Below, piece after piece: positions 2,071 through 24,543 of a stretch of DNA of 32,000 nt. Positions within the stretch are counted from its first letter, which is position 1. Each line of letters opens with the position of its first letter. Source of the DNA: Pseudothioglobus sp. nBUS_23 (GTDB lineage: Bacteria > Pseudomonadota > Gammaproteobacteria > PS1 > Pseudothioglobaceae); assembly GCF_051201565.1 (NCBI RefSeq), contig NZ_CP179200.1, forward strand, positions 840,001-872,000, read 5' to 3'. Position numbers and translations under genes: made by a program. The notes under the pieces are model-generated. The model ran no database searches, was not told the DNA's origin, and worked only from the letters and a program-made list of their open reading frames with translations.

Positions 2071-2095
2071 GCTAAATTTGAACTATAATTTTTAA

Positions 2096-3370
2096 ATGAT
2101 TAAAAATCTCAACAAGAAGCTTACTTTTATTGATTTATTTGCTGGATGTGGTGGACTTTCTTTGGGATTAGAGCAAGCGGGATTTTATCCTCTTTATGTG
2201 AATGAGCTAAACTCTGATGCTTTAGAAACTTACCTAATTAATAGAGATCAAGAATATCCTCATTTGCGTGAGAAATATCACTCAAAAGATATAAAAGAAG
2301 TTATTCTGAAAAAGGATTATTTTGATTCGCTTTTAAATGATCTGCAAGTCGATTTTAAACGTGACTTTAGAGAAAACTCAGTTGATTTGATAACTGGAGG
2401 TCCTCCTTGCCAAGGCTACTCTGCTTTAGGCATCAGAAGGTCTTATTCTGTAGACAAAAAACAGTTGCCATCTAATCATCTATATCAGGATATGGCCTAT
2501 TTTATTAGTCAGATTCAGCCTAAGATTTTTCTATTCGAAAACGTTCGGGGATTGTTAAATGCAAAATGGACTAAAGATGGAATGAAAGGTGAAATCTTCA
2601 AGGATGTATTTAAAACGTTTGATAGTTTATCTAATTACACAGTCAAGTTTAAATTAGTAAAAGCTAATGATTATGGCGTTCCGCAAAATAGACCCAGAGT
2701 TCTAATAATCGGGATTAGAAATGACTTTAATTTCAATTCAATGTCTGCTCTAGACGCATTAGAAGGAGGTTTACTTCCTGAGCCAACAAATGACTATCCT
2801 GACATAGAGGATCTATTATCTGATTTAGTTGATGACAATTTTGAATATGGCGGTGAGTCACTGTCATACAGAAAAGATCCATTAAATAGACTTCAGGAAA
2901 GTTACCGTACAAATATCCATTCAGGTGTCTTAATGAAAAAAGGGGATGAACTGACAGAAATGAAATACAGCAGACACTCGGATAAGGTAGTTGAAAAATT
3001 TAGTCATATGATCAAAAACCAGGGAAAGATACCAGAGCACCTTAAAACTAAAAAGTTTGCGCAGCGCGTACTTCCAAAAAAATGGGGAGATAATGGCCCT
3101 AAAATAACTGTGACCTCATTGCCTGATGATTTTGTTCATTATTCTCAAGCTAGAAGTCTGACTGTTCGTGAATGGGCAAGATTGCAAACTTTCCCTGATT
3201 GGTATAAGTTTGCTGGAAAAAGAACAACTGGTGGAATTAGAAGGGCGGGTAACCCCCGTGAATCTAACTTTGAAAGAGAGGTTCCAAGATATACCCAAAT
3301 AGGAAATGCAGTTCCTGTTAAGCTCGCTAGTGAGATTGGAAAACACTTTAGAAAGTTACTTCAAAATTAA
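2096..3370 (+). CDS. DNA (cytosine-5)-methyltransferase
   Basis: C5-MTase motifs I, IV, VI, VIII and X plus a motif IX-like block are present in order: I FIDLFAGCGGLSLG, IV GGPPCQGYS, VI ENVRGL, VIII QNRPRVLIIG, IX-like TVREWARLQTFPDWYKF, X TQIGNAVPVKLA. Confidence 0.92.
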   Translation: MIKNLNKKLTFIDLFAGCGGLSLGLEQAGFYPLYVNELNSDALETYLINRDQEYPHLREKYHSKDIKEVILKKDYFDSLLNDLQVDFKRDFRENSVDLITGGPPCQGYSALGIRRSYSVDKKQLPSNHLYQDMAYFISQIQPKIFLFENVRGLLNAKWTKDGMKGEIFKDVFKTFDSLSNYTVKFKLVKANDYGVPQNRPRVLIIGIRNDFNFNSMSALDALEGGLLPEPTNDYPDIEDLLSDLVDDNFEYGGESLSYRKDPLNRLQESYRTNIHSGVLMKKGDELTEMKYSRHSDKVVEKFSHMIKNQGKIPEHLKTKKFAQRVLPKKWGDNGPKITVTSLPDDFVHYSQARSLTVREWARLQTFPDWYKFAGKRTTGGIRRAGNPRESNFEREVPRYTQIGNAVPVKLASEIGKHFRKLLQN

Positions 3371-9025: not shown

Positions 9026-9304
9026 TCATTCATTTTTGACTAGTTGATCGATATATGCATCTAATCTTTCAATTTTTTCTTCGATTACAGAGGAATATGA
9101 AGGGGTTACAGAGGATATTTCTATTAATTGAGGCCCTTGCCTTGATAAGCTTTCTTTGAGCTTCAATTCCCCTATAAACCTTGATAGTTGCTTTTGATTT
9201 GAAAAATAGTGATGTCTGTCTCTTTTTCCCGAGGATTTTTCAATAAGAATCCAGTTGTATTTGTCAGTTTTGATAAACAATCGATTATCACCTAATGAGA
9301 TCAT
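9026..9304 (-). CDS. hypothetical protein (92 aa), translationally coupled to the AlpA-like gene
   Basis: Its ATG overlaps the upstream stop (ATGA). No recognisable motifs. Confidence 0.55.
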   Translation of the reverse strand: MISLGDNRLFIKTDKYNWILIEKSSGKRDRHHYFSNQKQLSRFIGELKLKESLSRQGPQLIEISSVTPSYSSVIEEKIERLDAYIDQLVKNE

Positions 9305-9534
9305 TTTGATTCTCCATCCCTCTCAACGCGCTTATCTTCGAGCCATTGTATGATTTCTTCGTAAAACCAGGCAGAACTTCTCTCACCAAGCTTTATTTGT
9401 CTAGGAAAAGAGTTGTCTTTAATCTGCCTGTAAATACTGGCAGTGCTTAATGTAGTAAGATGTTTAACTTCATTAAGCTTAATCACTTTATTAAATGATT
9501 TTCCTAAACTGCTTGAGTCACTATTTTTGGTCAT
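9301..9534 (-). CDS. alpA: AlpA-family (MerR-type HTH) transcriptional regulator / excisionase-like
   Basis: LTTLSTASIYRQIKDNSFPRQIKLGERSSAWFYEEIIQWLE matches the AlpA/Vis pattern. It is 77 aa, a typical size and island context for this family. Confidence 0.8.
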   Translation of the reverse strand: MTKNSDSSSLGKSFNKVIKLNEVKHLTTLSTASIYRQIKDNSFPRQIKLGERSSAWFYEEIIQWLEDKRVERDGESK

Positions 9535-10040: not shown

Positions 10041-10091
10041 GCTTTAGCAGCGCATTTTTATGTGTTTTCAATGAAGATTATTTATTTACTA

Positions 10092-10212: not shown

Positions 10213-10216
10213 TTAT

Positions 10217-10642
10217 ATGTCACAACAAAATCACTCTGACTCTGGTCAGTTTTCGAAGATATTAAGTCTTAAATTTATACTCGGAAGTTGGCCATTAGGC
10301 TACAAACTTATCCTTGAGGGTAATGCAGTTAATGTTACTCCAGACCCATGCTCATTCAATAATGAACCAATGACTTGTATCCCATCTATTGAAGAGTGGA
10401 ATAAATTCTTGGAAAGTATTGAACGACTTGATGTTTTAAATTGGAAAGAAAGTTATATTGATCCATCAATTTTGGATGGAACTCAGTGGCTTTTTCAAAT
10501 TAGAACTGAATCATTTGAAATAGATACTGGAGGCTCAAACGCATACCCTGAAAATTTCAATGGATTGATTACGTCAATTAATAAGCTGATTCCTCTTCCT
10601 TGCTTCACTTTAGGTAGTCCGATATGCGTCGATATTATTTAA
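10217..10642 (+). CDS. hypothetical protein (141 aa)
   Basis: GGAGG SD 5 nt upstream. No recognisable motifs. Confidence 0.65.
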   Translation: MSQQNHSDSGQFSKILSLKFILGSWPLGYKLILEGNAVNVTPDPCSFNNEPMTCIPSIEEWNKFLESIERLDVLNWKESYIDPSILDGTQWLFQIRTESFEIDTGGSNAYPENFNGLITSINKLIPLPCFTLGSPICVDII

Positions 10643-10677: not shown

Positions 10678-10751
10678 TGGTTTACCTTACAAACTGGGCA
10701 TTTGTTCCTATTGTCGCCCTAGGATTTCCCTTAAAGTACTAAAACGGAGGT
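10678..10751 (+). promoter_or_regulatory. conserved leader element, copy 2
   Basis: Hairpin GTTT-ACCTTAC-AAAC (10680-10694), then the same 58 nt (10694-10751). The ATG follows at 10756. Confidence 0.8.
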
Positions 10752-10755
10752 TATT

Positions 10756-11190
10756 ATGTCACACCCTTACCAAAACCATATAACGGTTGTTATAGGCAAT
10801 CCTGATGAAAAATTCAAAACTAAGGTTTCAGAAACTGCATTTGATGAATGCAGGACTGAAGAAGAAGTTTGGGTTGAGTATGTATTAAGAACTTTTGATA
10901 TTGGCACAATGCAGTTTGAGCCTGACTACAAAAGTCCTATTGATAAAGCTCTTACAAATCTTCTTGGAGAAGAAGTGCGTCTTGCTAAGCCTTTTCATGG
11001 TTTTACAAACAATGATGGAAGAACTTTTCCAGTCGTTATGTTTTTTGAAGAGTTCATACAAGATCTGTCAGGCAATCCAATATCCATTCTAAAGTTTAAT
11101 GATCAAATGCTTAGGCAGCTTGGTGAATACTTTAAAAGAACGATTAAGTCAGATTGGATTCATATCTCATCAACATTTACATATAGCTGA
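10756..11190 (+). CDS. hypothetical protein (144 aa)
   Basis: GGAGG SD upstream. No recognisable motifs and no similarity to the preceding ORF. Confidence 0.65.
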   Translation: MSHPYQNHITVVIGNPDEKFKTKVSETAFDECRTEEEVWVEYVLRTFDIGTMQFEPDYKSPIDKALTNLLGEEVRLAKPFHGFTNNDGRTFPVVMFFEEFIQDLSGNPISILKFNDQMLRQLGEYFKRTIKSDWIHISSTFTYS

Positions 11191-11204: not shown

Positions 11205-11278
11205 TGGCTCACTTAATGAGCTGGGCATTTGTTCCTATTGTCGCCCTAGGATTTCCCTTAAAGTACTAAAACGGAGGT
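11205..11278 (+). promoter_or_regulatory. conserved leader element, copy 3
   Basis: Hairpin GCTC-ACTTAAT-GAGC (11207-11221), then the same 58 nt (11221-11278). The ATG follows at 11284. Confidence 0.8.
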
Positions 11279-11283
11279 ATAAG

Positions 11284-11430
11284 ATGGGTAAAGTTACCAT
11301 TAAAAAGCTACCAAAAGATCATCCTATTTTTAAAGCTGGATGGGTTATTTCATCACATAAGAATCAATCTGAAAAGATAAAAATTTATGAGAAGAAAAAA
11401 CTAGCCAAAAAAGACCAAAACAAAAAGTGA
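11284..11430 (+). CDS. small lysine-rich protein (48 aa), below the ORF-track length cutoff
   Basis: I translated it by hand: MGKVTIKKLPKDHPIFKAGWVISSHKNQSEKIKIYEKKKLAKKDQNKK, stop TGA at 11428-11430. It has the same leader and SD as the two upstream ORFs, which is the main argument that it is real. Confidence 0.45.
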   Translation: MGKVTIKKLPKDHPIFKAGWVISSHKNQSEKIKIYEKKKLAKKDQNKK

Positions 11431-11502: not shown

Positions 11503-13098
11503 TTAGCTAAGGCTGAATTTATTTAATATCTCAGTATATGCAGCAGCAATGAGCTCAATATGATGTTGAAGCTCGTCACGATCCAAAGTATCTGCTAGTT
11601 GTGATCTAGAAATCTCTAGATTATTTCCAATAATTCCAATTGAAACCATATGGCTATGAATTATTTCTAATAATTGAGCTCTCGATGATTTTTTGTCAAA
11701 TAAATTCGCACTGTTTGGAATTAATGCATTGATGATTAAGTTGCGCTTTTCTTTTGTAACCGAGCAGGGCATCATAGAGAGAGTAATTGGAACCTTAAGG
11801 CCATTATTTTGAACATTAATTTGAATTGAATCATTAGGCCCTGGTTTTGGGTTGAATTTAAATGACTTAAGTCTTTCAACTACAATCATCAATTCAGGGT
11901 CAGGTTTGATTTCTTTTGAAGCTATTTCAATGCCATTAATTAATAGCTTTGATTGTGAGCCAAAGCCATTTAAATTTTGTTCTAGAGATGAAATTACAGA
12001 GTAGTTTGAAGAATTAGCAATATTCTCTGAAAGCATTAAATATTTATCAAGCTCATCTCTATTATTTCTCCATAAACTACCTGCAAGATAGTTAGTTTTG
12101 TCTCTAAATAAAGTTAAAAATTCAGCTATTGCTGCAACAGTTTTTCCTGCGTTAAGTGAATTTATATGATGGTCAAGTGACTCTTGATTATCAGATATGC
12201 ATGCAAGAAAAATTGATCGTTGTAAAACGCGATCCTTATCACCCAATTCAGATGGTGATTCAATACCAATTAAAATATTTTGAGTTTTATCTAATATCCT
12301 CGGAATAACTGGATTAATAGTTTCTTCATGAGTTACAAATCTAATAGGCTTTTGACTTGATGCATGAAGCGTCATTTCTTTGATAATCTCTTGTGATGAA
12401 AATTTGATATTGATTAACTCGCCATTATCAGAAATGCCCAATTTTTTTAAGCTAAAAATATAGAGTCTTAGTAACTGAAATTCATATTCCTGAATCTTTT
12501 TTGAGAGCTGAACTTCATCCAGAACTTTTTCTGTTAGCTCATAACAAATTTCAAAGGGGGTGCTGCCTGTAATTTTTGAAGAATAGTTGAAATCAATATT
12601 TAGTTTTTTGTATAGACCAACCACAGCTATATTTAAACTAGTTAGATGATTTACATGAAGCGCTCTTTGTGTAATTTTTGAAGCAGGCGGTAATACCCTG
12701 CTGCGCTTTAATTTACTTGTTTTTTCACGAACTTCAAATTCAAATAATTCAATGGGTAAATCAGGAAGCATTGAAAATGAAGCAATAAAGTTATCTTTCG
12801 TTTTTTGATCGAAGAATATAATTTTTTTTATATTTGAAATTGCTATAGGCCCATCTAGCATGAGATATTTAAATGTTTTCTTTTTTGCCGGTATAGCTGA
12901 CTTAACTGAAGTTATTTCTAAGCATAAATCATGCGTAATTTCATCAATAGAGCCTACAACAGAAACTTTTGGAAAGCTTAAAGACTGTATGTCACTATCA
13001 GGCTCAATGCTTGATGTCAGCCCAATAAAACCAGAGCTTAAATATTCCGGAAGTAGTGTTTTTTCCAAGGGTACAAAATATGTGTTTAGTTTATCCAT
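11503..13098 (-). CDS. hypothetical protein, last gene of the helicase operon (531 aa from ATG 13098; TTG alternative at 13104)
   Basis: Its start lies 2 nt after the upstream stop (or overlaps it by 4 nt if TTG is used). I found no Walker, nuclease, zinc-finger or TM motif. Confidence 0.8.
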   Translation of the reverse strand: MDKLNTYFVPLEKTLLPEYLSSGFIGLTSSIEPDSDIQSLSFPKVSVVGSIDEITHDLCLEITSVKSAIPAKKKTFKYLMLDGPIAISNIKKIIFFDQKTKDNFIASFSMLPDLPIELFEFEVREKTSKLKRSRVLPPASKITQRALHVNHLTSLNIAVVGLYKKLNIDFNYSSKITGSTPFEICYELTEKVLDEVQLSKKIQEYEFQLLRLYIFSLKKLGISDNGELINIKFSSQEIIKEMTLHASSQKPIRFVTHEETINPVIPRILDKTQNILIGIESPSELGDKDRVLQRSIFLACISDNQESLDHHINSLNAGKTVAAIAEFLTLFRDKTNYLAGSLWRNNRDELDKYLMLSENIANSSNYSVISSLEQNLNGFGSQSKLLINGIEIASKEIKPDPELMIVVERLKSFKFNPKPGPNDSIQINVQNNGLKVPITLSMMPCSVTKEKRNLIINALIPNSANLFDKKSSRAQLLEIIHSHMVSIGIIGNNLEISRSQLADTLDRDELQHHIELIAAAYTEILNKFSLS

Positions 13099-13100
13099 TA

Positions 13101-14609
13101 TCAAAGCTCGATTTTATCTTTAATTTCCTTTATAGAAAAATTGTTCAATTCTACTAGTGTATCAAGAATTGACTCCTCTAGATTATTTGTTGCACTCAAT
13201 CTATCGTTAATTAATTGAGGAATATGGCCATATTCAAATTGACCAGAAACAGCCTCAATAATGACTTGTTTGGTAGTTTCAAGATCCATTTTAGATAGCT
13301 TTTTTGCTAAATCCCCATATAAATCCCTAGCTACTGTTGAAGCTGATGCAAGCCAGTCAACATCATTTAACATATCTTCTAATACTGGATTTTGTAAATC
13401 CTTTTCAAGGGTGGTATAGGTGCATAAAGGCTCACTATCACTATGTGAAGGAAATAATCTTAAAACATCTTTAAAGCCTCCATTATCAGGAGATCCTTCA
13501 ACCATAAAAAATAAGTGTTCTCTTGGTCTAGATGAAACTACATAAAGTTTCTTAAAACCATCAATTTCATTACCTGCGCTGAGATATAAGCCTGCAAGAT
13601 TAATAACAAATACAACATCAAACTCTAAACCCTTAGAATTGGCTTGATGAATAATAGTTATAGAGGGAGGTTTATCAAACTGTAAGCTTTCCCAGTCATT
13701 GAGTTTGAAAGTATCTTTACCAATATAAGTTTGCACATGATATTTTGATTGATTTGATTCAAGAATTTTTTTAATTGAGGAATAAACAAACTTAACATCC
13801 TTATTTTTGCCTAAAACCACCACACCAACCTCCTTATTTGTCTGGACGTTGCAGTAGTTAGCGATATGCTCTATTTGACTATTAAGATCTTTATTTACAA
13901 ATATAACTGGTTTAATTCCTTCATGATCAGGCAAACTAACTGTTCCAGCTCCTAAAACTTGAAAATGCCTAGCGAATTTTGCAACTTCTTTAGTGTTCCG
14001 ATAATTTTTATCTACTCTCCAGTATCTTCTGTTTCTTGCAGTTGCATTTATTTCAGATCTAATTTCTGAGATAGTCGAATTAACATCAGTAATTGTTTGA
14101 TTTTCATCTGCAAAAACACTTAAAGTAAGCGTTGGATCTTTTTGGTTATTTACATAGTTCATTAAGGTGGAGTACATTTTTTTTGGAAAATCTTGCCCTT
14201 CATCAATAATTAGATGCCCCCAATGAAGTTTCTTTTTTTGACTATCTGTTGCGTTAGCTATATTTTGATCAATTTTCGACCAATTAATCTCCCATGGTTT
14301 ACGATAAGTTGTTGGAAAGCTTCTCTCTCCAAATGCAGATTCATACCATTCCTTTGCCCATTCATTAATATGAACTACCTTAACATTTTTTGGCAAACCT
14401 TCAAAATTAGAAGTGTATTGCCTTAAGGTTTTATTAAACATTCCAACAATTACATTTCCTGATTTTGCCAGTCTTGTAGCCCGATGCATTGCGAGAACAG
14501 TTTTTCCTGACCCTGGAGGACCAACTATTAAGACACCCTTATCTTGGGGAGATTCTGAGTAGACGTTCCTTTGGTCTTGGTCTAAATCTGCAAATGCGGG
14601 AAATTTCAT
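13101..14609 (-). CDS. UvrD/Rep-like SF1 helicase-family ATPase
   Basis: Walker A VGPPGSGKT, Walker B LIIDEGQDF, NYRNT, KGLEFDVVFV and LYVVSSRPREHLFF are present in SF1 order. 502 aa. Confidence 0.85.
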   Translation of the reverse strand: MKFPAFADLDQDQRNVYSESPQDKGVLIVGPPGSGKTVLAMHRATRLAKSGNVIVGMFNKTLRQYTSNFEGLPKNVKVVHINEWAKEWYESAFGERSFPTTYRKPWEINWSKIDQNIANATDSQKKKLHWGHLIIDEGQDFPKKMYSTLMNYVNNQKDPTLTLSVFADENQTITDVNSTISEIRSEINATARNRRYWRVDKNYRNTKEVAKFARHFQVLGAGTVSLPDHEGIKPVIFVNKDLNSQIEHIANYCNVQTNKEVGVVVLGKNKDVKFVYSSIKKILESNQSKYHVQTYIGKDTFKLNDWESLQFDKPPSITIIHQANSKGLEFDVVFVINLAGLYLSAGNEIDGFKKLYVVSSRPREHLFFMVEGSPDNGGFKDVLRLFPSHSDSEPLCTYTTLEKDLQNPVLEDMLNDVDWLASASTVARDLYGDLAKKLSKMDLETTKQVIIEAVSGQFEYGHIPQLINDRLSATNNLEESILDTLVELNNFSIKEIKDKIEL

Positions 14610-16489
14610 TAGATAAGCTCTTGAATAAAGTTAAAAAGACCAGAAACCTCGTCCCTTTCTTTTCCAAGGCCGCCCAAAGTGAGACGGTTCAACATTGCAT
14701 TTTGAAAGGTGCAGCTGGTTTCAGCAATTAGTGAACAGCAATGACATGCTGATCTATTTAAACCAGAAAACCCCTGTGAATCTGTCTCTCTGCAAACCGG
14801 ATCTGCTGAGCACCAGATAGCAGATTCATTAAGTTTATCTAAAACCAGATTTATTGCCTCTATTCGAGCTTGATCAACAAGCCCTCCCATTGTGCCTTCA
14901 GCATCTAATTCTGAGGTATAAATCATTATTCCTGCATAGTTTGAATCTGGATCAACAAAGACCCTCTCTCTAAGAGCTGATGAAGAATAACCACTGTTAA
15001 AGGTGAGTTGCCTTATCAATAGATGCGAAAGGGTGTGAGTGAGAATAAATAAGTCAGAGTCAGGAATGTCCAAAAGATAGTTATCATTAAGCTTTTCTAA
15101 TACCTGTTGCTGACCTCTAACTAGCTTAGAAAACTCATCACCATGCTCTTTAAAATATTTTGTAATTGTTGATTTATTCAACTCAAAATAAATACCTTCT
15201 CCAAAAGCCTCTATTGTTGGAAGCCAGTTTCGTTCTTCACTTATGTCGACAGATACGTCAACTAAACCTTGCCCTCTTGTAAATCCAGTTAAAACTCTAA
15301 TTTCTCTTAATCTTCTTATTTTGGCAATATGAGAAAACAGTAGACTAGTAAATTTACTTCCAGTTGCTGTAGATTCAAAAGTAATATCGAAGTTATCTTG
15401 ATGGACATCAATTCGTTTTTTAAAAAAATCTAATTCATCTTTAAGAAGGTTCTCTTGTTTTTTATCAACTTCTTCCTCTGTATCATTAGAATCACCAAAA
15501 TCATTCTCTAATTTTTTCTTTGCTGAATTAATTAAAAATTCAAGTGCTTTTTCATAGCTAATATTGGCCTGACTTGCATACCTCTCTATCTTGGTTTCGT
15601 ATTTATTGTCATCTGACTCAAGGCTCAAAATACATAGATCTAGTCCTATCTCTTCAATAATATCTTCAAGAAGTAAATTGAGCGCCGAAGAGTCAAAATC
15701 ATTACTTTCCTTGGCCTTTAGACTAATATCTATCGCGCTAAGTATCTTAGGCCTATGAATTGATGAACTTCCTCTTGGTTCAAATTTCATGGTTACTTCT
15801 TTGCAAGTTGTGGCAACTTCCATTCTTTTATCCCTAGACATTTTTGGGTGAACCATCCAAGGTTGTGTTCCACAGCATGCTTGATTATTTGCATACACTA
15901 AGTGACCCGGAATAGCCCTATCTTGCAATCGTTTTAAGGAAACACCTGGAGAATCACACGCTCTACATTTGACAATCATCTGATCAAAATCACCACCATG
16001 CTTTCCTGTTGTAGTAAAGAATATTTGGTCGTAGACAGTACAATTTCCAGTATTTGCTTGCTGTTGATTTGAGTGAGCAAATAACCACCAATTAAATTCA
16101 GTTAAATGACCATTATTGCAATAGGCTATGAATCGCATTGGAGAAAGCTTGGATTTACTTTTACAATTTCCGCACCTTGGCTCACCATGCTTTTCAAGAA
16201 GAGCTTTATCTAAAAGCTGAAGACTGCTACATTTTGAGCAATGATGCCATTGAGGAAAGCGACTAACCGTTAAAGATTCCTCTGGATTTTCAAAACTAGA
16301 GAAACTTCTAAGTTCTTTTTTGAACCCCAAGAGTTTATTTAGTCTTTCTAGCTCGACTATTTGAGATGGTCTCCTCCATTTTGAAATATCATTAACAACA
16401 AATGACTCTCCATCAATATCAATAATTGCACCAACACCAAAGGGTTGAATAGTTTGAGCCCTTCGCATTTTTTTTAGATTGTCAATCAT
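14609..16489 (-). CDS. DrmB-like DUF1998 (MrfA-type zinc-binding) protein
   Basis: The C-terminus WCSADPVCRE...ACHCCSLIAETSCTFQNAMLNR fits the DUF1998 four-Cys plus N..L.R signature. The N-terminus RRAQTIQPFGVGAIIDIDGESFVV is DrmB-like. Additional CxxC pairs are present (CSKCSS...CGNCKS). Confidence 0.8.
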   Translation of the reverse strand: MIDNLKKMRRAQTIQPFGVGAIIDIDGESFVVNDISKWRRPSQIVELERLNKLLGFKKELRSFSSFENPEESLTVSRFPQWHHCSKCSSLQLLDKALLEKHGEPRCGNCKSKSKLSPMRFIAYCNNGHLTEFNWWLFAHSNQQQANTGNCTVYDQIFFTTTGKHGGDFDQMIVKCRACDSPGVSLKRLQDRAIPGHLVYANNQACCGTQPWMVHPKMSRDKRMEVATTCKEVTMKFEPRGSSSIHRPKILSAIDISLKAKESNDFDSSALNLLLEDIIEEIGLDLCILSLESDDNKYETKIERYASQANISYEKALEFLINSAKKKLENDFGDSNDTEEEVDKKQENLLKDELDFFKKRIDVHQDNFDITFESTATGSKFTSLLFSHIAKIRRLREIRVLTGFTRGQGLVDVSVDISEERNWLPTIEAFGEGIYFELNKSTITKYFKEHGDEFSKLVRGQQQVLEKLNDNYLLDIPDSDLFILTHTLSHLLIRQLTFNSGYSSSALRERVFVDPDSNYAGIMIYTSELDAEGTMGGLVDQARIEAINLVLDKLNESAIWCSADPVCRETDSQGFSGLNRSACHCCSLIAETSCTFQNAMLNRLTLGGLGKERDEVSGLFNFIQELI

Positions 16490-19400
16490 TCGACCCTCAC
16501 TTGAACTTCAGAGTCAACATTCCTCATAGAATGCATTGTTCTAAATCCTGAACTATTGTCATTTTTTTGATTAAAGTTTATTAACAGTGAATGCATAGAT
16601 TTGTCTTTGCCAGCATTATAATAAAGTCTCTGTTTGGTCCAATCTGTCCAATTATTCAGGACTTTCTTTATATGCTTTTCAATTATTGATCTTTCATAAT
16701 TGTATTTATTTTCATCATATATGTTTACTAGACGTTTTTTAAAGTCTGATAATAAAGGTTCAATTTCTTCATGACCTTTGCTAAATAATCCAGCAGAATT
16801 GTTATCTTTCATATGACTAACACCATGCCTAATGAGGATTACTAAGCTAGCATGTAGAGCTCTTTCAAGTGCTGGGGCACTGCCAGGGGTGACACTAGTT
16901 GGCTCAACAAGTTGATAGAGTTTTTGATGGTAGGCTTTAAATTGTTCATAATGGCTTCGATCTCTTGGCTTCGCAGGAGAATATAAAGCAATTATCAGTC
17001 CTGGGCCAATATTATCAGGGCTTCTTCCAACTCGACTGCTTGCTTGAATATATTCAGAAGTTGTTTTGGGCTGACCATTAATAATCATAGAGCCTAGTCT
17101 GTCTATATCAATACCAACTGAAATCATATTTGTAGCAGGAACAAAGTCAATGACTGATGAGTCATTATTTGTAGTTCTCAAAGCATCACTTGTTTCTGAA
17201 ATTGATTTTGTTATGTTGGCACTTATTTCCTCTTTATTTAGAGGTTGAATTTCATCACGATCCTGATTTTGAGCATCACAGCAAACTTTCATTCTATCTA
17301 AGATTTCTTGATTTACTGAGCTATTAATTAAACCTAACTCTCTTAAACTATTGCAATAGCAAAGTGTAGTCCATAAAAAATCTAATGCCTCTTTTGAATC
17401 ATCTTTTTCTGCGATATATCTGACTGATTGAAGAAAAGCTCCACTCACTGCGTGCGCAGCACTTGTTGATCTAAAGGCTTGGGGCATAATTCCAAGATAG
17501 AGTCTTCCATTACTTGGATTGGCATCAGTATTAGCAAAGAAAGAATTTTTAATTCTAAGACCCCTTGGTGGAAATATTTTGGACTCCCTTCCAAGGAGCC
17601 TCTGAAGCTGTGTTTTGGAGTCTCTAACGGTAGCACTTGAGGCAATATATTTTGGACCAGTGTCAGCAAGATTGTGATCTCTCTGAGCTTTTCTTATTAA
17701 GGAATCAAAACCTGCCTCATAGATAGCACTTATTGTGCCCAATGGTCCTGAAATTAAATGTATTTCATCTTGGATTATTAGCGTAGGTGGAATAGTATTT
17801 TGCTTAGATTTTGGTCTAATGCCAAAAATACCACCCGGCTCAGGTTTCCATGCAACCTCAGCAAATTTATCAATAGTTCCTAAAAGGAAGGAGGGTGGCG
17901 CTTTATATATTTCTTCATCAACAGTTTTAACAGGGATATTAATTTTGTTAAAGGTACATTTCAAATTTTGACATCGATAAATGACAGCATTATTTGTAAC
18001 TCTAATACCAAGACCAGGGTAAAAACCATCTACATCTTTTTCGATATTGCTGGGTATTATGCTCGTTCCACAGCATGGACATTCTGTTACATGAAACAAA
18101 TGAGTTGTTACATTGTCAACCAGTTGATTAAAGCCTTCTCTAGCATCCTCAATTCGATTATAAGAAACTTTGCTTCCAACAAATAGACCAATACTAAATT
18201 GTTCATCACCTAATAAATCTTCGTTCTCTAGTCGGACTTTTTCTAATGCGCATCCAAGCGAAGTTGTTCGTGAAAATTGATCTGAGGTTAAAAAACGGAG
18301 TGTATATCGTGTCAACACTCCAGTGCCATATCCTATTTCAGGAGTGCCATATCTTGTCCTTCTTCTAATCAGCTCATAGCAAGCTAGAAAAAGATATGCT
18401 TCTGTCTTACCTCCACCGGTACTAAACCAAATTAAATCTGCAATTTCTCTATTTTCTTTACCTTCTTCTTCAAAGTCTAAAAAGCACATTAAAAAGAAGG
18501 CTAACTGAAATGGCCTCCATCTTGGGCTATCTTCTGAGTTTATTTGGTCAAGATCAAGAGAGTTATCAATATTTTCATTCCAATCAATTGGCCATGGCTT
18601 ATTTTCTTTTTCTCTTACTGATCGTAAATCTCTATTTTTTTTGGTTTGGAGCATTTGAATAAGCATTGCTCTATTAGACAATCTAAAAGCTTCCCAAAAG
18701 TTATCATTATTCTCAAGAGCCTTTATGCCCTTACGCATTCTCTGAGAACACTCTTTCATTTCATTAACAAGGTGTTTTTGAGCATTTTTAAAACTTTTTT
18801 GTGGTAAGTTTGATTCACTATCAATCCATTGCTCATAAAATTGACATAGCTCATAAAACCCTGAGATTAATTTATCTTTATCAAATTTATTGTCAGCTAG
18901 ATTTGCAATATTGAATATATATGAGTTTTCAAAAGTTGAGCCATCAGACCCCTTTAAGGTGTCAAATATTGGTCTATAAACTGTTTCAAAAGGTATATAC
19001 GAGATTTCTACTTGATTAATTAATCCATTATCCTCATGCCAATCAACAGAGGCACCATGCCCAATGGCATAAATAGGATTGTCACTATATTGTAGAGACA
19101 GGATATTCTCTTCCATATCATTTAGCTCAACTTTGTTAAAGTCGTAGGGTTTGATATGATTTTCAGAACTAGTGCATTTTAGATTTACTTGATACAAGCG
19201 TTTTTCAACATTTTTAATACTTCTTTGACTCTTGTCATTTTTATTTAACTCATTCACAAGAGTTACCGTAACAATTTCACAATCCTTACGATCTTTTGAG
19301 TTTCTTCTGAAAATATGTACTTTGGCTTTATATTCTTCACCATCATGAAAAATATCCTGATTTTTCTTAATTGAATTAGCTTTAATGACTGAATCTTCTA

Positions 19401-19800
19401 GGGGAATTCTTCTATAGCCAACTGGCGAATCTTCACTTTTAGCTTGATATTTATATCTTGCAGCAGAACAATGAATGGTGAAATCGGCTCCTTTTTTTAT
19501 TACAAAGGTAATACCAACTGAAGAAGGGAGCTCTTCATTAGCCATGGACAAGGGATTATCGGAATCTCCACTAAAATCCTCTCTTGTTTTGCCTTCAATT
19601 GATCCATCCTCTTCACTAAATGATTCATCATCTGAAGAAAGATCAGCTCTTTTTTCACCCTGCGGAAATAAGATGCCAGTAAGGTATCTTAAAGTTAAGC
19701 CTCTATTGCCCTCTATAAACTCATCATTTCCACCTCGAGGGCCAAAAACTAGTGATTTAAACTCATCTGCTACTTGTTGTCTAAGTTCAGATTTATGCAT
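16486..19800 (-). CDS. DrmA-like SF2 (DExH) helicase, 1104 aa
   Basis: Motif I WFSTGGGKTEAYLF (about nt 18423), motif II IIQDEIHLISGPLGT (about nt 17772), motif III SSAT, and motifs V/VI MISVGIDIDRL...YIQASSRVGR. A Cys4 insertion (CPCCGTS...YRCQNLKC) lies between motifs I and II. The N-terminal region of about 450 aa has no assignment. Confidence 0.85.
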   Translation of the reverse strand: MHKSELRQQVADEFKSLVFGPRGGNDEFIEGNRGLTLRYLTGILFPQGEKRADLSSDDESFSEEDGSIEGKTREDFSGDSDNPLSMANEELPSSVGITFVIKKGADFTIHCSAARYKYQAKSEDSPVGYRRIPLEDSVIKANSIKKNQDIFHDGEEYKAKVHIFRRNSKDRKDCEIVTVTLVNELNKNDKSQRSIKNVEKRLYQVNLKCTSSENHIKPYDFNKVELNDMEENILSLQYSDNPIYAIGHGASVDWHEDNGLINQVEISYIPFETVYRPIFDTLKGSDGSTFENSYIFNIANLADNKFDKDKLISGFYELCQFYEQWIDSESNLPQKSFKNAQKHLVNEMKECSQRMRKGIKALENNDNFWEAFRLSNRAMLIQMLQTKKNRDLRSVREKENKPWPIDWNENIDNSLDLDQINSEDSPRWRPFQLAFFLMCFLDFEEEGKENREIADLIWFSTGGGKTEAYLFLACYELIRRRTRYGTPEIGYGTGVLTRYTLRFLTSDQFSRTTSLGCALEKVRLENEDLLGDEQFSIGLFVGSKVSYNRIEDAREGFNQLVDNVTTHLFHVTECPCCGTSIIPSNIEKDVDGFYPGLGIRVTNNAVIYRCQNLKCTFNKINIPVKTVDEEIYKAPPSFLLGTIDKFAEVAWKPEPGGIFGIRPKSKQNTIPPTLIIQDEIHLISGPLGTISAIYEAGFDSLIRKAQRDHNLADTGPKYIASSATVRDSKTQLQRLLGRESKIFPPRGLRIKNSFFANTDANPSNGRLYLGIMPQAFRSTSAAHAVSGAFLQSVRYIAEKDDSKEALDFLWTTLCYCNSLRELGLINSSVNQEILDRMKVCCDAQNQDRDEIQPLNKEEISANITKSISETSDALRTTNNDSSVIDFVPATNMISVGIDIDRLGSMIINGQPKTTSEYIQASSRVGRSPDNIGPGLIIALYSPAKPRDRSHYEQFKAYHQKLYQLVEPTSVTPGSAPALERALHASLVILIRHGVSHMKDNNSAGLFSKGHEEIEPLLSDFKKRLVNIYDENKYNYERSIIEKHIKKVLNNWTDWTKQRLYYNAGKDKSMHSLLINFNQKNDNSSGFRTMHSMRNVDSEVQVRVE

Positions 19801-21352
19801 TCAATAGCTCCAATAAATATTTTTTAACTTGATCATTCTCAACAATATAACAAATACCTGTTGATCGTGAAACTGATTTGTAATATTGATCACGAAAAAC
19901 CTCAACATTAGAAACCTCACCCAGCCCAATAATAAAGACATAGTTTGATTCCATTCCTTTAAATTCATCAATTTGAGCAATCGTACAGCCTTCTTTTTGA
20001 AGCCTTGAAATATAATTAATTTTGTCTAGATTCTCTTTTTTTGAATAAAGAATTGTTGATTGACTAATATCAATAATGTCACCATTGGTAATGATATTCT
20101 CCAAAGCATCATTGTCAATTCGTCTCACTTCAGGTCCAGCTCCCTTAGCAGTTGTTCTGCCAACTCTTGCTTTAGAAATAGTTTCTAAGGCTTTAACAAT
20201 ATTAGGAGTATTTCTAACGTTAATATCAAGAGGAATCAGTGAATTATTTCCTGTACATGTTTTGATATAATCAAGATGGGAACTATCAAAGGAAGAGTTG
20301 TTGTCAAACTGGTTTTCAAAATCTCCAAACCACCTCCAACGACCATTTTCAAGTCCATCTTTTAAGACTTTATCTATGAGATCAATGCCATCATTATTGC
20401 ACCAGTCCTGACCTTCATCTATTAAGACAACATCAAATGAATCATCTTTAATAGCTGATAAGCTTTCTAAATTGTGACACTCAATAGATGAATCAAAAGA
20501 AACCTCTTGCTTTAAAAAATTGATTAATCTATTGGGCTTTGTAATGATTGCAATCTTTTTATTGTTAGTAGATTCAAATTTAGCACCATAAAGCAATAAA
20601 AATGTTTTACCTGTGCCGGCACCACCATCTATTAAAAGCCTATCAAGACTTGAGAACATATCAATAACTTGGTATTGACCCTCAGTCATTGATTTTTGTT
20701 CTTTATTTAAATTTGAAATAACACTTTGTTGATCAACATATGACTTATCCCAATCTGGTCTTAAAAGAATGGAAGCTTGATTTACTTGCTCATCTGATAA
20801 GGTTGAAGCTGGCTTGTTTGGAAAGTCATTTGCAATAAAGTGATCGATTGCAATATTCAAGTATTCTTTAAATATCACTGGTGTTATAAGGTTTTCCTCA
20901 TAGAGACAGTACTCATCCTGCATCTCAGGCCAATCATTAATTACTCTATTGTTACTGCATAAAATAGCTACTTTAACAAAAGGGATCTTAAAAAAAGATC
21001 GATCGTTAAACCATTTTTTCCTTAGTGTTTCGACTGCATCGCTAGCCTGTACTAAAGGAGATTTTTTCTTTTTATATCTTTCTTTTTTGCAACTTTTATC
21101 AGTATAAATCCTGTAATAACCCTCAATATATCTGACAGGGCCTGCTTTGACTTCAATACCAATAATCCCTCTTTTTGTGATTACAAGAAAATCAATTTCA
21201 GACCACCCTTGTCGTCTCCCTCCTGGGATATTTAATGAATGCATTGCAACATCGCATGAACTTAAATTGATCTCTTCAAGAAGGTCCATTACTCTCTTTT
21301 CACCATTATTCTCTATCTCATGGTTCCAGATTTGAGGGGGAATTGTTCTCAT
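19793..21352 (-). CDS. NERD-domain nuclease fused to an SF1 helicase-like ATPase
   Basis: The N-terminus GEKRVMDLLEE...GWSEIDFLVITKRGIIGIEVKAG fits the NERD (PD-(D/E)xK-type) pattern. It is followed by Walker A DGGAGTGKT, Walker B VVLIDEGQDW, NVRNT and FKGMESNYVFIIGL. Confidence 0.85.
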   Translation of the reverse strand: MRTIPPQIWNHEIENNGEKRVMDLLEEINLSSCDVAMHSLNIPGGRRQGWSEIDFLVITKRGIIGIEVKAGPVRYIEGYYRIYTDKSCKKERYKKKKSPLVQASDAVETLRKKWFNDRSFFKIPFVKVAILCSNNRVINDWPEMQDEYCLYEENLITPVIFKEYLNIAIDHFIANDFPNKPASTLSDEQVNQASILLRPDWDKSYVDQQSVISNLNKEQKSMTEGQYQVIDMFSSLDRLLIDGGAGTGKTFLLLYGAKFESTNNKKIAIITKPNRLINFLKQEVSFDSSIECHNLESLSAIKDDSFDVVLIDEGQDWCNNDGIDLIDKVLKDGLENGRWRWFGDFENQFDNNSSFDSSHLDYIKTCTGNNSLIPLDINVRNTPNIVKALETISKARVGRTTAKGAGPEVRRIDNDALENIITNGDIIDISQSTILYSKKENLDKINYISRLQKEGCTIAQIDEFKGMESNYVFIIGLGEVSNVEVFRDQYYKSVSRSTGICYIVENDQVKKYLLELLNA

Positions 21353-21381
21353 GAAAATGCACTAAAAGTCTTATAGTACAA

Positions 21382-21409
21382 ATTGTAGAGCATTTTGGAT
21401 CTAAATCAA
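21382..21409 (-). promoter_or_regulatory. candidate sigma70 promoter for the helicase operon
   Basis: On the minus strand: TTGATT (21409-21404), 16 bp, TACAAT (21387-21382), about 30 nt upstream of the ATG at 21352. Confidence 0.3.
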
Positions 21410-21432
21410 TATAAATTAAGTACAATTCTGCT

Positions 21433-24400
21433 ATGAAGAAATCATTTATTTTATTTTTCTTTTTAAGTTTTTTTAACTCTGCTCATGCTCAGAGCTGTAT
21501 TCAATTTGCTGAGGACCTTGGATTTAACACGTGGAATAATCAAGGAATCTGTCTTGGTGTTAGCAGGGAGGTTAACCATAAGTGTTATTCCTATGAGGCA
21601 AATAAGAGAAAACTTGATTGCAGTATTCCATCCTCTGATGGATGGTCTTGTAAAAAGGGATATGTAAAAAAAGGACAAAAGTGTGAAGCCGATACATATG
21701 TTCCTAAAAATGCTTTCAAGACAGCATCTGGTTGGAGTTGTAATTTCAACTATATAAAAAATAGTTCAGGAAATGCTTGCAAATCACTCCCTTCAAATTC
21801 ATATAAAACTTCTGAAAGTTCATTCCGTTGTAATTATGGTTATGAAAAAAATATATCTGGATCAGGATGCATATTAAAGAAAACAAAGCAGCAAAAGACC
21901 AAGCCTGATAACTCATACTTTACCAACCTTACTGCTAAAGGATGGAAATGCAGAGGAGGATATGTTCAAGATAACAATAATTGTGTGCTTGAGGCTGATT
22001 TCATTCCTGATCATGCAATTTCTTTTGGAAATTCTTGGGTCTGCGGTTCAAATTACACACTTAACGAAACAGGAAATGGCTGTCAAAAAGTACCTTTAAA
22101 TGGTTATTCCTCTAGATATAGTAATTCTTGGGACTGCAAGGCAAATTATCAAAAAAGTGGTGATAGATGTATTCTGAAAACACCAAAGTTAAAAGCGCCT
22201 AACAATGCTACTGTTTTTGGCAATACTTGGCGTTGTGATTTTAACTACCGTTTAACTATTGCTAAAAATGGTTGTGAAAAAGTTCCATCAAATGCATATT
22301 CAACAGCTGGATCGAATGGATGGGGTTGTATATCTGGTTATGAAAAATATGGAAGAATTTGTAAAGAAAGAGTTGTTAAGAGGTCTTCTGAAAAAGAGTC
22401 GGTAAATGAAAATGAGTCTGTCAATGTATTTATAGAAATTGCTGCAGCCATTATGCTAGTTTATTTTCTTTTGAAAATTTTTACCAAGAAAGCTCCACCA
22501 TCATCATCAAAGCCTAAGGCGCCTAAGACAGAAAAACCTAAGACTGCAACGACAGAAAAACCTAGGAGCTTTGTTGTAAAAGAACCTAAACTAAAAAAAG
22601 AAAATAAGACAGAAAAACCTAAGACTGCAACGACTGAAAAACCTAGGAGCTTTGTTGTAAAAGAACCTAAACTAAAAAAAGAAAATAAGACAGAAAAACC
22701 TAAGACTGCAACGACTGAAAAACCTAGGAGCTTTGTTGTAAAAGAACCTAAACTAAAAAAAGAAAATAAGACAGAAAAACCTAAGACTGCAACGACTGAA
22801 AAACCTAGGAGCTTTGTTGTAAAAGAACCTAAACTAAAAAAAGAAAATAAGACTGCCAAAACTAAATCACGAGCGCCACAAAAGTTCTATGCTAAAAACA
22901 GCCTATCTCTAGGAGATATAGAAACTCAAAAGAAAAAAATTAATTGGAAGAATACGCTTGATGGCATATCAAAAATTAATAACAGTAGTGTAGGTTATCT
23001 AATCCCCACAAAAACAGGACTCACAAAGGGAATTTTTGATGCAACAAAAGAATTGAGAGAATTTTTATTTGAAAATAATATTCATGATTATGAGAATTAT
23101 CCTTTTGGAGAAAAGAAGCGAATTCCAGTTCAATTAGTTACAGAGAAAGGTATTTTCTCAACTTCTATAACTTTATATAGGCCAAACAATAAAAAGCCGT
23201 TTCCTAGGTTGTCGATTTCGGGCATTAATAAGTTCGTTGAGCCAAAAGACTTACTAGTATTTAAAGTTATTGATAATGTCTTATATATCATTAATAATGC
23301 ACATGATGGCACCTATGACTATGCCCATTTACACCTTAAATATGTATTAAATTTCAATAAATTGCTGTCAGAAGACAAGCTCAGCTTTGAACAAAATAAA
23401 CTTTACTCGAGAAAAGATATTGGATTAATTTGTCTTCCTAAAACTGGAAGGCCCAAAGGTGGTATGTGGGATACTGGCTATGTTAGGGTTAAAAATAATC
23501 TCATTATATTTATGAATATTGGCGTTCCGGGACGCACTGAACACGATTTCAACAATAGCGTCAACGAGAGAAGTAAAACAATTATGTGGTATGGAAAACC
23601 AAACTCGCATTCTTTTCAGCCAACAATCGGTAAATTAATTTCTGGCGAATTAACCCCTTACTTTTTTGCAAGATGGGACAGTAGTAATGTCAATTTCAAA
23701 TTTCTCGGTATCGGAAAAATTGAATACTGGAGAGATGGAACTCCTACAGTAACAGGAAGTGGTGATAAGGCTGAAACAATTGAAATTAAATTAACTTATC
23801 AATCAGTTGATGATAAGAAATTAATTACTGAACCTAAGTCTCTTAATTTAATTTGGTCAGATAAACAGCCAAAAGTAGAGCCTAAGGTTAATTCAAAAGT
23901 AGAGCCTAAGGTTAAGCCAAAAGTAGAACCTAAGGTAGAAACTAAAAATCAATCTACTAAGAAGGCGCAAAAAAATAAAGAAAGTGACTCAGAAAAATTT
24001 ACTATACTAAACTTTGATCAATTCTCAGATAAATATTCAAAACTAGTATCCAGTGGTGTTGAGTCCATAGATGCCCCAACTATCTTAGGATTAATGACCT
24101 CAGATTTATATGAGGGATTAGTTAAAGAAAAACTTAAGAATAATATTAATCAAAATCTTTTATCGAAAGAGTTAATAGGTCTAGAGAAAAAGGCAATTAA
24201 GAGCTATTCTGAGAATATTGACTTTAAGCTTCAGAAAAAAATAATTCAGAGTAAAGAGAATCCTTTATTTGTCGCGTCGATATATTCTTCTGATGAAGAG
24301 CTTAATAATCTTTCTAGTGTAATTTGTAATGAGGAAGCATACTTACTGGCCCAAATAGGCATGCAGCCATCTGATGAAATATATGCTATTTTGCAGCATC

Positions 24401-24543
24401 AATTAATGGTGTCAGGCAAAGATAAAATCAAGTACTTATCATACTGGAAAGGGCAAGTCTGTATTGCGGCTGATATTGATAGAAATGATAAGTTTATAGA
24501 GACCCTTATTCAATCAGAAAAGGATTTTCTTAAAAAACTTTAA
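21433..24543 (+). CDS. large single-pass membrane protein: signal peptide, 8x Cys-rich ectodomain repeats, TM helix, repeat linker, large cytoplasmic region
   Basis: Signal peptide MKKSFILFFFLSFFNSAHA. Eight W-x-C-x2-(G/N)-Y-x(5-9)-C modules between residues 70 and 310. TM helix VFIEIAAAIMLVYFLLKIF at residues 332-350, followed by a K-rich, positive-inside segment. Confidence 0.85.
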   Translation: MKKSFILFFFLSFFNSAHAQSCIQFAEDLGFNTWNNQGICLGVSREVNHKCYSYEANKRKLDCSIPSSDGWSCKKGYVKKGQKCEADTYVPKNAFKTASGWSCNFNYIKNSSGNACKSLPSNSYKTSESSFRCNYGYEKNISGSGCILKKTKQQKTKPDNSYFTNLTAKGWKCRGGYVQDNNNCVLEADFIPDHAISFGNSWVCGSNYTLNETGNGCQKVPLNGYSSRYSNSWDCKANYQKSGDRCILKTPKLKAPNNATVFGNTWRCDFNYRLTIAKNGCEKVPSNAYSTAGSNGWGCISGYEKYGRICKERVVKRSSEKESVNENESVNVFIEIAAAIMLVYFLLKIFTKKAPPSSSKPKAPKTEKPKTATTEKPRSFVVKEPKLKKENKTEKPKTATTEKPRSFVVKEPKLKKENKTEKPKTATTEKPRSFVVKEPKLKKENKTEKPKTATTEKPRSFVVKEPKLKKENKTAKTKSRAPQKFYAKNSLSLGDIETQKKKINWKNTLDGISKINNSSVGYLIPTKTGLTKGIFDATKELREFLFENNIHDYENYPFGEKKRIPVQLVTEKGIFSTSITLYRPNNKKPFPRLSISGINKFVEPKDLLVFKVIDNVLYIINNAHDGTYDYAHLHLKYVLNFNKLLSEDKLSFEQNKLYSRKDIGLICLPKTGRPKGGMWDTGYVRVKNNLIIFMNIGVPGRTEHDFNNSVNERSKTIMWYGKPNSHSFQPTIGKLISGELTPYFFARWDSSNVNFKFLGIGKIEYWRDGTPTVTGSGDKAETIEIKLTYQSVDDKKLITEPKSLNLIWSDKQPKVEPKVNSKVEPKVKPKVEPKVETKNQSTKKAQKNKESDSEKFTILNFDQFSDKYSKLVSSGVESIDAPTILGLMTSDLYEGLVKEKLKNNINQNLLSKELIGLEKKAIKSYSENIDFKLQKKIIQSKENPLFVASIYSSDEELNNLSSVICNEEAYLLAQIGMQPSDEIYAILQHQLMVSGKDKIKYLSYWKGQVCIAADIDRNDKFIETLIQSEKDFLKKL
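22525..22853 (+). repeat. in-frame 81-bp tandem repeat, 4 copies (27 aa each: KTEKPKTATTEKPRSFVVKEPKLKKEN)
   Basis: Units at 22525, 22606, 22687 and 22768. They are identical apart from one synonymous A/T difference in unit 1. Confidence 0.95.
23869..23940 (+). repeat. in-frame 24-bp tandem repeat, 3 imperfect copies (PKVEPKV..)
   Basis: CCAAAAGTAGAGCCTAAGGTTAAT, TCAAAAGTAGAGCCTAAGGTTAAG, CCAAAAGTAGAACCTAAGGTAGAA. Confidence 0.85.

Follow-up and report, generated by a model that had tools for sequence, protein, structure and literature searches.

A predicted DISARM-type defence operon with exchanged accessory genes on a mobile island of Pseudothioglobus sp. nBUS_23

We examined a 32,000-nucleotide (nt) stretch of Pseudothioglobus sp. 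nBUS_23 DNA (contig NZ_CP179200.1, positions 840,001 to 872,000), called the window below; positions are counted from its first letter. The window carries an operon of five minus-strand genes, which we number 1 to 5 in gene order and refer to together as the cassette (Table 1). A reading made from the sequence alone, without database searches, had proposed this operon as a candidate new defence system with a DrmA/DrmB-type core. The evidence points instead to a variant of DISARM, the antiphage system to which the DrmA/DrmB helicase pair belongs.

Five coupled genes around a DrmA/DrmB core

The five genes are joined almost without spacing, as the sequence-only reading had described, and the open reading frame (ORF) coordinates and overlaps match. 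In gene order, the junctions are an 8-nt overlap, a 4-nt ATGA overlap between drmA and drmB, a 1-nt TAATG overlap and, before gene 5, either a 4-nt overlap (TTG start) or a 2-nt gap (ATG start). All five ORFs are full length and their catalytic motifs are intact. Upstream of gene 1, the minus strand has a promoter-like match at 21409-21382, of a kind no commoner here than in shuffled sequence. The promoter scan gave 52 matches against 44.4 ± 7.8 in shuffled sequence and the terminator scan gave 9 against 4.9 ± 2.4; neither count is clearly above expectation, and both scans are uninformative in this AT-rich DNA.

Table 1. Features of the cassette and of its surroundings in the window (aa, amino acids; SF1 and SF2, helicase superfamilies 1 and 2)
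Feature	Position	Strand	Description
Gene 1 (519 aa)	19793..21352	minus	N-terminal NERD (PD-(D/E)xK) nuclease domain and SF1 helicase-type ATPase
Gene 2 (1104 aa)	16486..19800	minus	DrmA, YprA-family SF2 DExH helicase
Gene 3 (626 aa)	14609..16489	minus	DrmB, OB-CON-DUF1998/MZB zinc-binding partner of DrmA
Gene 4 (502 aa)	13101..14609	minus	UvrD/GajB-like SF1 ATPase without nuclease domain
Gene 5 (531 aa from ATG at 13098; 533 aa from TTG at 13104)	11503..13098 or 11503..13104	minus	
Divergent intergenic region (80 nt), 5' of gene 1	21353..21432		Presumed operon promoter; sole gap upstream of the coupled genes
tRNA-Ser(GGA)	587-674	plus	ARAGORN, Rfam
Tyrosine integrase	859-2070	plus	Island attachment end; Phage_integrase 2.2e-24
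C5 cytosine DNA methylase (424 aa)	2096..3370	plus	PF00145 1.6e-65; TIGR00675 dcm 178 bits; PADLOC MTase_II 1.4e-78, DrmMII 3e-53
AlpA-type regulator/excisionase	9301..9534	minus	PF05930 4e-17
Divergent neighbour (1036 aa)	21433..24543	plus	Signal peptide, Cys-rich EGF-like repeats, transmembrane helix, tandem repeats, MvaI/BcnI-shared domain, DUF3427-like domain

We compared the window proteins with Pfam (25 ORFs at an E-value of 0.01 or stricter; 21 of them come from the 28 that reach 100 aa, and four are shorter) and with the PADLOC profiles (15 ORFs). Gene 2 matches the PADLOC DrmA profile (4.1e-185) and the Serratia DrmA structure, PDB 7S9V_A (1.5e-115). Gene 3 matches the PADLOC DrmB profile (1.3e-72), the NCBIfam model DrmB_fam (342 bits, cutoff 240) and PDB 7S9V_B (1.4e-46), and the PGAP annotation likewise calls it a "DrmB family protein". 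No other PDB entries than 7S9V_A and 7S9V_B were matched by the sequences of this core. Within NCBIfam, gene 2 fits DISARM_DrmAS (785 bits) better than DISARM_DrmAL (539 bits). Since 785 bits falls under the equivalog cutoff of 950, gene 2 is, to judge from these profiles, a divergent member of DrmA. As in the DISARM core, DrmA is encoded separately and DrmB lies immediately downstream. PADLOC, NCBIfam and PDB searches thus agree on genes 2 and 3, and the DrmA/DrmB assignment of the sequence-only reading holds.

The assignments of genes 1 and 4 held as well. Gene 1 matches Pfam NERD (8.1e-13, 49.3 bits, cutoff 22.1) and carries the D...E-x-K catalytic motif of that nuclease; at least 85% of 54 homologues share each of D54, E67-V68-K69 and the ATPase motifs GAGTGKT and DEGQD. 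Among the PADLOC profiles, gene 1 comes closest to RTasNERD-Hel (2.5e-16), AbiO and Nhi. From this domain content, we propose that gene 1 is the nuclease effector of the cassette. Gene 4 matches ResIII, AAA_19 and UvrD_C in Pfam, and NERD+UvrD C3a187 (1e-21) and GajB (1e-15) in PADLOC, so that both collections identify a UvrD-like SF1 ATPase. Every motif that the sequence-only reading quoted was found in the translations, on positions conserved throughout the families: alignments of 54, 26 and 72 homologues show conservation of at least 85% for the NERD D-E-x-K residues, both sets of Walker A and B motifs and the Cys clusters of DrmB (the last in the 72 homologues), and the window proteins have all of them.

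Gene 5, a "hypothetical protein" in the PGAP annotation, had been described as having no recognisable motif, and this description has to be given up. The protein gives a borderline match to the Pfam family 2CompART (26.9 bits, cutoff 27), and its orthologues in two related loci, L001 and L004, reach 34.6 and 30.1 bits. An AlphaFold2 model made with 13 homologues (pLDDT 85.8, pTM 0.82) predicts an N-terminal domain of ADP-ribosyltransferase (ART) fold at about residues 1-125, a helical middle and a C-terminal fold like that of type III secretion chaperones. When residues 1-130 were modelled separately (pLDDT 84.5), 37 of the top 40 Foldseek matches in the PDB were ART-fold proteins, the other three being the uncharacterised CC0527. 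Foldseek likened this domain to Tpt1 (2e-3, probability 1.0), DarT, Scabin, TreX/TreTu and pierisin; nucleic acids are the targets of many of these proteins. DarT entries were matched at 0.03-0.1, with query-normalised TM-scores of up to 0.61. The full-length model matched CesT/SycE-like type III secretion chaperone folds, which we assigned to the C-terminal third of the protein from the secondary structure of the model. Only seven positions (L20, G23, D36, F95, F104, R294 and D506) are conserved in at least 80% of 57 homologues. We regard the N-domain as having a predicted ART-like fold, with catalysis as a candidate property only. Its fold resembles that of DarT (of DarTG) and Tpt1/KptA. Gene 5 differs from these in that no conserved triad was identified, the domain has only about 125 aa and sits in a 531-aa multidomain protein, and there is no DarG-like antitoxin partner. 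A literature search for "2CompART" returned unrelated text only. Separately, weak PADLOC matches to Cas4b in gene 5 (residues 186-257, E 5e-4) were dismissed as spurious, since that stretch is all-helical in the confident model.

Conservation of the cassette across genomes

The sequence-only reading had asked whether the five genes occur together elsewhere. They do: Gamma- and Alphaproteobacteria, Gemmatimonadota and a Deinococcus plasmid together contribute at least 24 further loci with all five, in two gene orders. Gene 1 is present in every complete cassette. Homologues of gene 5 at 27-63% identity showed the order of the window in every context recovered, with all five genes wherever the contig extends far enough upstream. 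A tblastn search of plasmids added a cultured carrier, Deinococcus gobiensis, with the cassette on its plasmid P4. A scan of a genome collection with the gene 5 alignment returned one locus only, in a Piscirickettsiaceae metagenome-assembled genome (MAG); its search patterns were too specific.

A broader picture came from a metagenome scan with an alignment of DrmA, which gave more than 590 relatives. We kept 80 loci and annotated them with hidden Markov models built from the cassette proteins, and four layouts emerged. Layout one is that of the window (gene 1, DrmA, DrmB, gene 4, gene 5), and in layout two gene 1 stands last (DrmA, DrmB, gene 4, gene 5, gene 1). In both, the gene that follows gene 4 is a distant homologue of gene 5 (hhalign 97.4%/1.4e-11, 87.9%/3e-6 and 99.4%/4e-21). 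Layout three consists of a methylase, a protein of about 850 aa, gene 1, DrmA and DrmB; layout four consists of a methylase, a protein of about 870 aa, DrmA, DrmB and gene 1. The 850-870 aa proteins of these two layouts have weak PADLOC matches to DrmE (7e-6 and 3e-10). Both methylases tested from related loci match DrmMII very strongly: that of locus L040 (layout three) at 4.8e-174, and that of L078, which lies beside a cassette in the order of the window, at 7.7e-137. Judged by these matches, layouts three and four are class 2 DISARM with an added NERD-SF1 gene and without DrmC.

Two of these loci have further features. L040 encodes, between the DrmMII gene and the DrmE-like gene of its class-2-like DISARM locus, a 687-aa protein (1823-3886) that matches PADLOC MzaE at 7.5e-100. 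L078 (2599-17910) carries two DrmA-DrmB pairs in tandem, the second of them, with a 734-aa gene upstream, directly before a complete cassette in the order gene 1, DrmA, DrmB, gene 4, gene 5; the DrmMII-type methylase is downstream. We also considered genes 4 and 5 as a split DrmE and rejected the idea at the sequence-profile level: hhalign comparisons of the profiles of genes 4, 5 and 1 with 17 DrmE-like proteins of related loci gave probabilities of at most 8%.

Genes 4 and 5 always go together and are peculiar to this lineage. Gene 4 homologues are numerous (1272 matches). Six of them, sampled down the ranking, come from Alkalimonas delamerensis, Phaeobacter italicus, a Gemmatimonadaceae MAG and three metagenome contigs, and all six follow DrmA-DrmB and precede a gene of 500-570 aa. 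The gene 5 family is rare, with 78 clusters among 1.84 billion representatives in a full profile search and 13 clusters among 5.8 billion in a word-seeded search. Gene 5 is also the fastest-evolving component: it is 47% identical to its orthologue in L001, the closest relative, as against 75-81% for genes 1-4. Its most variable stretches in the 57-homologue alignment are residues 151-250 and 301-450.

These data bear on whether the region is a system at all or only a row of separate ones, namely an Nhi-like NERD-helicase, a minimal DrmAB pair and an unrelated module of genes 4 and 5. Gene 1 does resemble defence proteins that stand alone (Nhi, AbiO and NERD+UvrD), and many loci have gene 1 and DrmAB without genes 4 and 5, so the modules are separable. 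However, start/stop overlaps tie all five genes together in the window, the five travel together across phyla in two permuted orders, and every sampled gene 4 homologue lies in a DrmAB cassette. We give such a juxtaposition very little credence.

Close relatives of the window cassette occur as well. Several independent metagenome contigs carry cluster mates that are at least 90% identical (99% for gene 5). On one 21.7-kb MAG contig (OAU35_000xx) with cluster mates of genes 2-5 at this level, DrmA is annotated in two pieces of 667 and 338 aa; the gene may be frameshifted or decaying in a sister population, or the contig may be misassembled. In locus L094 (3067-4804), the position of gene 1 holds only a 168-aa ORF beside an IS3-type transposase, which suggests insertion of an insertion sequence (IS) into the NERD-helicase gene.

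The island and its methyltransferases

The cassette had been placed on a tRNA-linked island and described as more AT-rich than metG. The first part largely stands: the tRNA-Ser, the integrase and the AlpA gene support a mobile island, and the L001 island has an integrase 80% identical to that of the window, an AlpA gene and a homologue of the small ORF p144. The far boundary was not found in the window, where neither a second tRNA-Ser 3' end (at up to 3 mismatches) nor a long flanking direct repeat turned up; an Rfam scan of the window returned tRNA only. The AT-richness is not specific to the operon, whose GC content (0.341) is practically that of the whole window (0.342); only the 573-nt metG fragment is higher (0.426).

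It had also been noted that the operon lacks a methyltransferase and a phospholipase D (PLD) nuclease. For PLD this is correct: no PLD domain was found among the 25 window ORFs scanned against Pfam and no DrmC match among the 15 scanned with PADLOC, and wherever Pfam hits are shown for a related cassette, a PLD family is not among them. For the methyltransferase it is correct of the operon itself, inside or adjoining which there is none; yet the same island encodes a C5 methylase (2096-3370), and most relatives with the same gene order have one nearby. The island enzyme adjoins the integrase and is separated from gene 5 by 8.1 kb; of the PADLOC models, the generic MTase_II fits it best. It may belong to another system; it is also a possible source of self-marking for the cassette.

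Of the 19 informative relatives with the gene order of the window, 15 carry a C5 methylase no more than about 3 kb from the cassette, and in four of these 15 an MvaI/BcnI-type endonuclease gene is also near. MvaI/BcnI-family enzymes cut CCWGG/CCNGG-like sites. In L001, gene 5 and the methylase share a strand, and 73 nt separate the end of the former from the start of the latter. Against these stand the five complete loci of the alternative order (L034, L037, L051, L061 and L064), which have no C5 methylase and are flanked by housekeeping genes, a type I R subunit or Fic; L093, L094 and L020 likewise have none in the available flanks. A C5 methylase is thus frequent, but not universal, in the cassette family, and because 15 of the 19 same-order relatives and the island itself carry one, its absence is not a property of the family. 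Next to the cassette-linked C5 methylase, L092 encodes a Vsr very-short-patch repair endonuclease (212-589) and L009 an HhH-GPD glycosylase (441-1124). Both are usual companions of 5-methylcytosine methylases and repair deamination damage.

This distribution allows two other views of the window copy. The five genes could be a self-contained, methylation-independent defence system that senses the structure of foreign DNA, such as free ends or replication intermediates, the methylases of its relatives being independent restriction-modification (R-M) neighbours. The nine complete cassettes without a C5 methylase in the available flanks (the eight loci above and this window) are consistent with this. 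So are the changing position and strand of the methylase between loci and the four loci in which methylase and MvaI/BcnI endonuclease together make an ordinary type II R-M unit; class 1 DISARM is also reported to tolerate the loss of its methylases. But a methylase in 15 of 19 same-order loci, over several phyla, is far above what a chance neighbour would give, the L001 methylase lies close behind gene 5 on its strand, and related loci carry bona fide DrmMII. We consider methylation independence a tentative and rather unlikely alternative.

This copy could, secondly, be an orphaned remnant that lost its methylase and is non-functional or decaying. L001 has an integrase of the same family and the same p144 neighbour as the window, but also a methylase and a 190-aa gene of which the window shows no trace; the near-identical MAG contig has its DrmA split, and gene 1 of L094 appears truncated beside the IS element. 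Decay is nevertheless hard to reconcile with five full-length ORFs with intact catalytic motifs and with cluster mates on several independent contigs, and a streamlined genome of 1.79 Mb would be expected to purge 10 kb of dead DNA. We judge this view improbable.

Other genes of the window adjoin the cassette or share its island. The 1036-aa divergent neighbour is kept in L001 and L011, and its link to the cassette is uncertain. It contains four 81-nt tandem repeats (22443-22928); its residues 520-621 are 39% identical (5e-19) to the N-termini of the cassette-linked MvaI_BcnI-family proteins of the distant loci L010 and L008, and after the DUF3427-like domain come KVEPKV repeats and a C-terminal domain of unknown kind. 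Small DUF3427+NucS proteins are its homologues. Pfam gave no match to it, whole or in pieces, and no nuclease domain was detected.

The island methylase is immediately followed by an 846-aa protein (the two at 2096-5969, plus strand) whose only recognisable part is a C-terminal Schlafen/AlbA_2 domain; the two may form a separate modification-linked defence pair. A 338-aa protein at 7975-8991 (plus strand) with an N-terminal GIY-YIG nuclease domain (PADLOC candidate PD-T4-3, 1.7e-11) is likely, from this match, another defence gene of the island. Between AlpA and an array of small ORFs, a 32-nt unit (TCTGATTTTCGGACTTTTATTTCGACCCATAG) is repeated in about five tandem copies (9896-10055), which from their arrangement could be iterons or regulator-binding sites. 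Within the array, an 86-nt element occurs three times with 85-100% identity (10139-10224, 10678-10763 and 11205-11290). Each copy starts with a hairpin, one of them flagged as terminator-like by the scan, ends in a GGAGG ribosome-binding site and ATG, and precedes a different small ORF (141, 144 and 48 aa). The elements have no Rfam match and look like repeated cassette junctions. Finally, two minus-strand ORFs (25568-26092 and 31284-31796), apparent paralogues without a Pfam match, share a 65-nt direct repeat at their 5' ends (77% identical; 25992-26056 and 31729-31793).

Relation to DISARM and a proposed mechanism

In a published summary of Ofir et al. 2018, DISARM is defined by DrmA, DrmB and DrmC with class-specific genes, and DrmE is present on occasion in class 2. 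With class 2 (DrmE, DrmA, DrmB, DrmC, DrmMII), the cassette shares the split DrmA and the DUF1998 protein DrmB; its family is also often linked to a C5 (PF00145) methylase, and related loci pair the same NERD-SF1 gene with DrmE-like and DrmMII proteins. It differs from class 2 in having no DrmC and no DrmE, with the NERD-SF1 protein, the UvrD-like ATPase and the ART-fold protein instead, and no methylase adjoining it here; none of the five proteins has a PADLOC match to DrmE. With class 1 (DrmD SNF2, DrmMI N6-methylase, DrmA, DrmB, DrmC), it shares the DrmAB core (7S9V). It lacks the SNF2 helicase, the N6 methylase and the PLD protein of that class, and no SNF2 or N6-methylase match occurs among the 25 window ORFs scanned. 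The published DISARM type I and type II definitions in PADLOC each need five core genes, of which the cassette lacks three; a looser call of 'DISARM_other' is possible.

Other systems resemble parts of the cassette. ARMADA type II (Bell et al. 2025; ArmA BrxHII-like, ArmB PglX-like, ArmC YprA-like, ArmD RelE-GajB-like) also combines a YprA-family operon with a GajB/UvrD-like SF1 helicase that has an N-terminal domain of toxin or nuclease type. Its YprA-family helicase, however, is unsplit and Druantia-like, it has a PglX methylase and BrxHII, its fused domain is a RelE-like RNase rather than NERD, and it has no equivalent of gene 5. TALON, from the same paper, also joins a YprA-family helicase to a NERD-type nuclease, but with an ARMADA-like unsplit helicase and TPR-CSD and TBP proteins, none of whose genes is found here, and it is largely confined to Chloroflexota. 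Nhi, AbiO and NERD+UvrD (Gao candidate C3a187) have the architecture of gene 1, a nuclease domain followed by an SF1 core; they act alone, whereas gene 1 is translationally coupled to DrmAB and always lies in a larger cassette. Bell et al. 2025, who describe ARMADA, BRIGADE and TALON, mention "many uncharacterized DISARM-like classes", and their "DISARM-like" cassette of 2024 later became ARMADA. No description of the gene set of the cassette was found in the searchable literature: full-text searches for DUF1998+NERD+UvrD or DrmA+DrmB+NERD returned only Bell et al. 2025, in whose text and searched supplements no NERD/UvrD variant of DISARM appears.

By these definitions the cassette is an undescribed subtype of DISARM that is neither class 1 nor class 2. 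Since distant relatives carry the NERD-SF1 gene with DrmE-like and DrmMII proteins, and a C5 methylase is common nearby, it is best placed within class-2-type DISARM, as a branch in which the accessory genes have been exchanged. The proposal of a new defence system is therefore to be narrowed: the module is conserved around DrmAB and its gene set was not found in the searchable literature, but it is a variant of the DISARM family and not wholly new. We think it probable, from gene content, that the operon belongs to the DISARM lineage, acts against phages or plasmids and works as proposed below; its carrier is the tRNA-Ser-linked integrase/AlpA island. Its context adds support, with an integrase, AlpA, the PD-T4-3-like GIY-YIG protein and the Schlafen/AlbA_2 protein in the same island.

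In the proposed mechanism, DrmA and DrmB would form an ATP-driven helicase core that senses DNA ends, by homology with the Serratia DrmAB complex. According to Bravo et al. 2022, DrmAB is autoinhibited and its trigger loop is released by DNA with a free 5' single-stranded overhang. Gene 1 would then supply the DNA degradation that canonical DISARM ascribes to the PLD protein DrmC. We propose this because of its domain content and because gene 1 accompanies DrmE-like, DrmA, DrmB and DrmMII genes, in one of two arrangements directly after DrmB, where DrmC would sit. The gene 4 motor and gene 5 might take the accessory role of class 2 DrmE, which is the weakest step. The fast-evolving gene 5 could be an adaptor or specificity subunit, possibly one that modifies nucleic acids, and might decide how the target is engaged or be a point of attack for phage inhibitors. 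Self DNA would normally be marked by the adjacent C5 methylase, which this copy may have lost or its lineage may never have gained. Because that methylase is missing here, the window copy would rely on the other C5 methylase of the island or on methylation-independent sensing of free DNA ends.

Several points weigh against this account. PLD, DrmE, DrmD and DrmMI are all absent, and the score of gene 2 lies below the DISARM_DrmAS cutoff. The island methylase is only about 30% identical to cassette-linked methylases and lies beside a different large gene. We looked for a degraded methylase next to gene 5 with five cassette-linked methylases as tblastn queries, and only the gene at 2096-3370 was found. 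Class 2 DrmMII is reported to methylate CCWGG/CCNGG, and its loss to be deleterious; according to the same published text, class 1 copes without its methylases and neither class needs DrmC. In the alignment of 57 gene 5 homologues, no canonical ART triad (H-Y-E, R-S-E or Tpt1 R-H-R-R) is evident. The roles given to genes 1, 4 and 5 are predictions from sequence, as are all steps beyond the identity of DrmAB and the function of the gene set as a whole.

A bolder possibility is that genes 4 and 5 are a new effector or sensor module of DISARM, in which the motor would expose foreign single-stranded DNA and the ART-fold domain would mark or block it, for example by ADP-ribosylating the DNA, so that the five genes could defend the cell without an epigenetic self-mark. 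The existence of copies without a methylase, in this window and in the alternative-order loci, suggests the last point. We regard this version as speculative and unlikely, and return to the branch of class-2-type DISARM as the preferred interpretation.

The cassette is real, conserved and phylogenetically broad, and its parts are mostly familiar defence domains that hold little surprise for a specialist. That a streamlined marine bacterium of the SUP05 clade, with a genome of 1.79 Mb, invests about 10 kb in it, on a mobile island, is worth attention. DISARM is widespread, yet its step of foreign-DNA destruction is unresolved: DrmC, its candidate nuclease, can be dispensed with, and no function is known for DrmE. 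The branch found here has recognisable enzymes in place of both, namely a nuclease-helicase of PD-(D/E)xK type and an SF1 motor with an ART-fold protein, and would offer a more tractable route to the effector step. Its natural copies with and without a C5 methylase would also provide a direct test of how far self/non-self discrimination by DrmAB-based systems depends on methylation.

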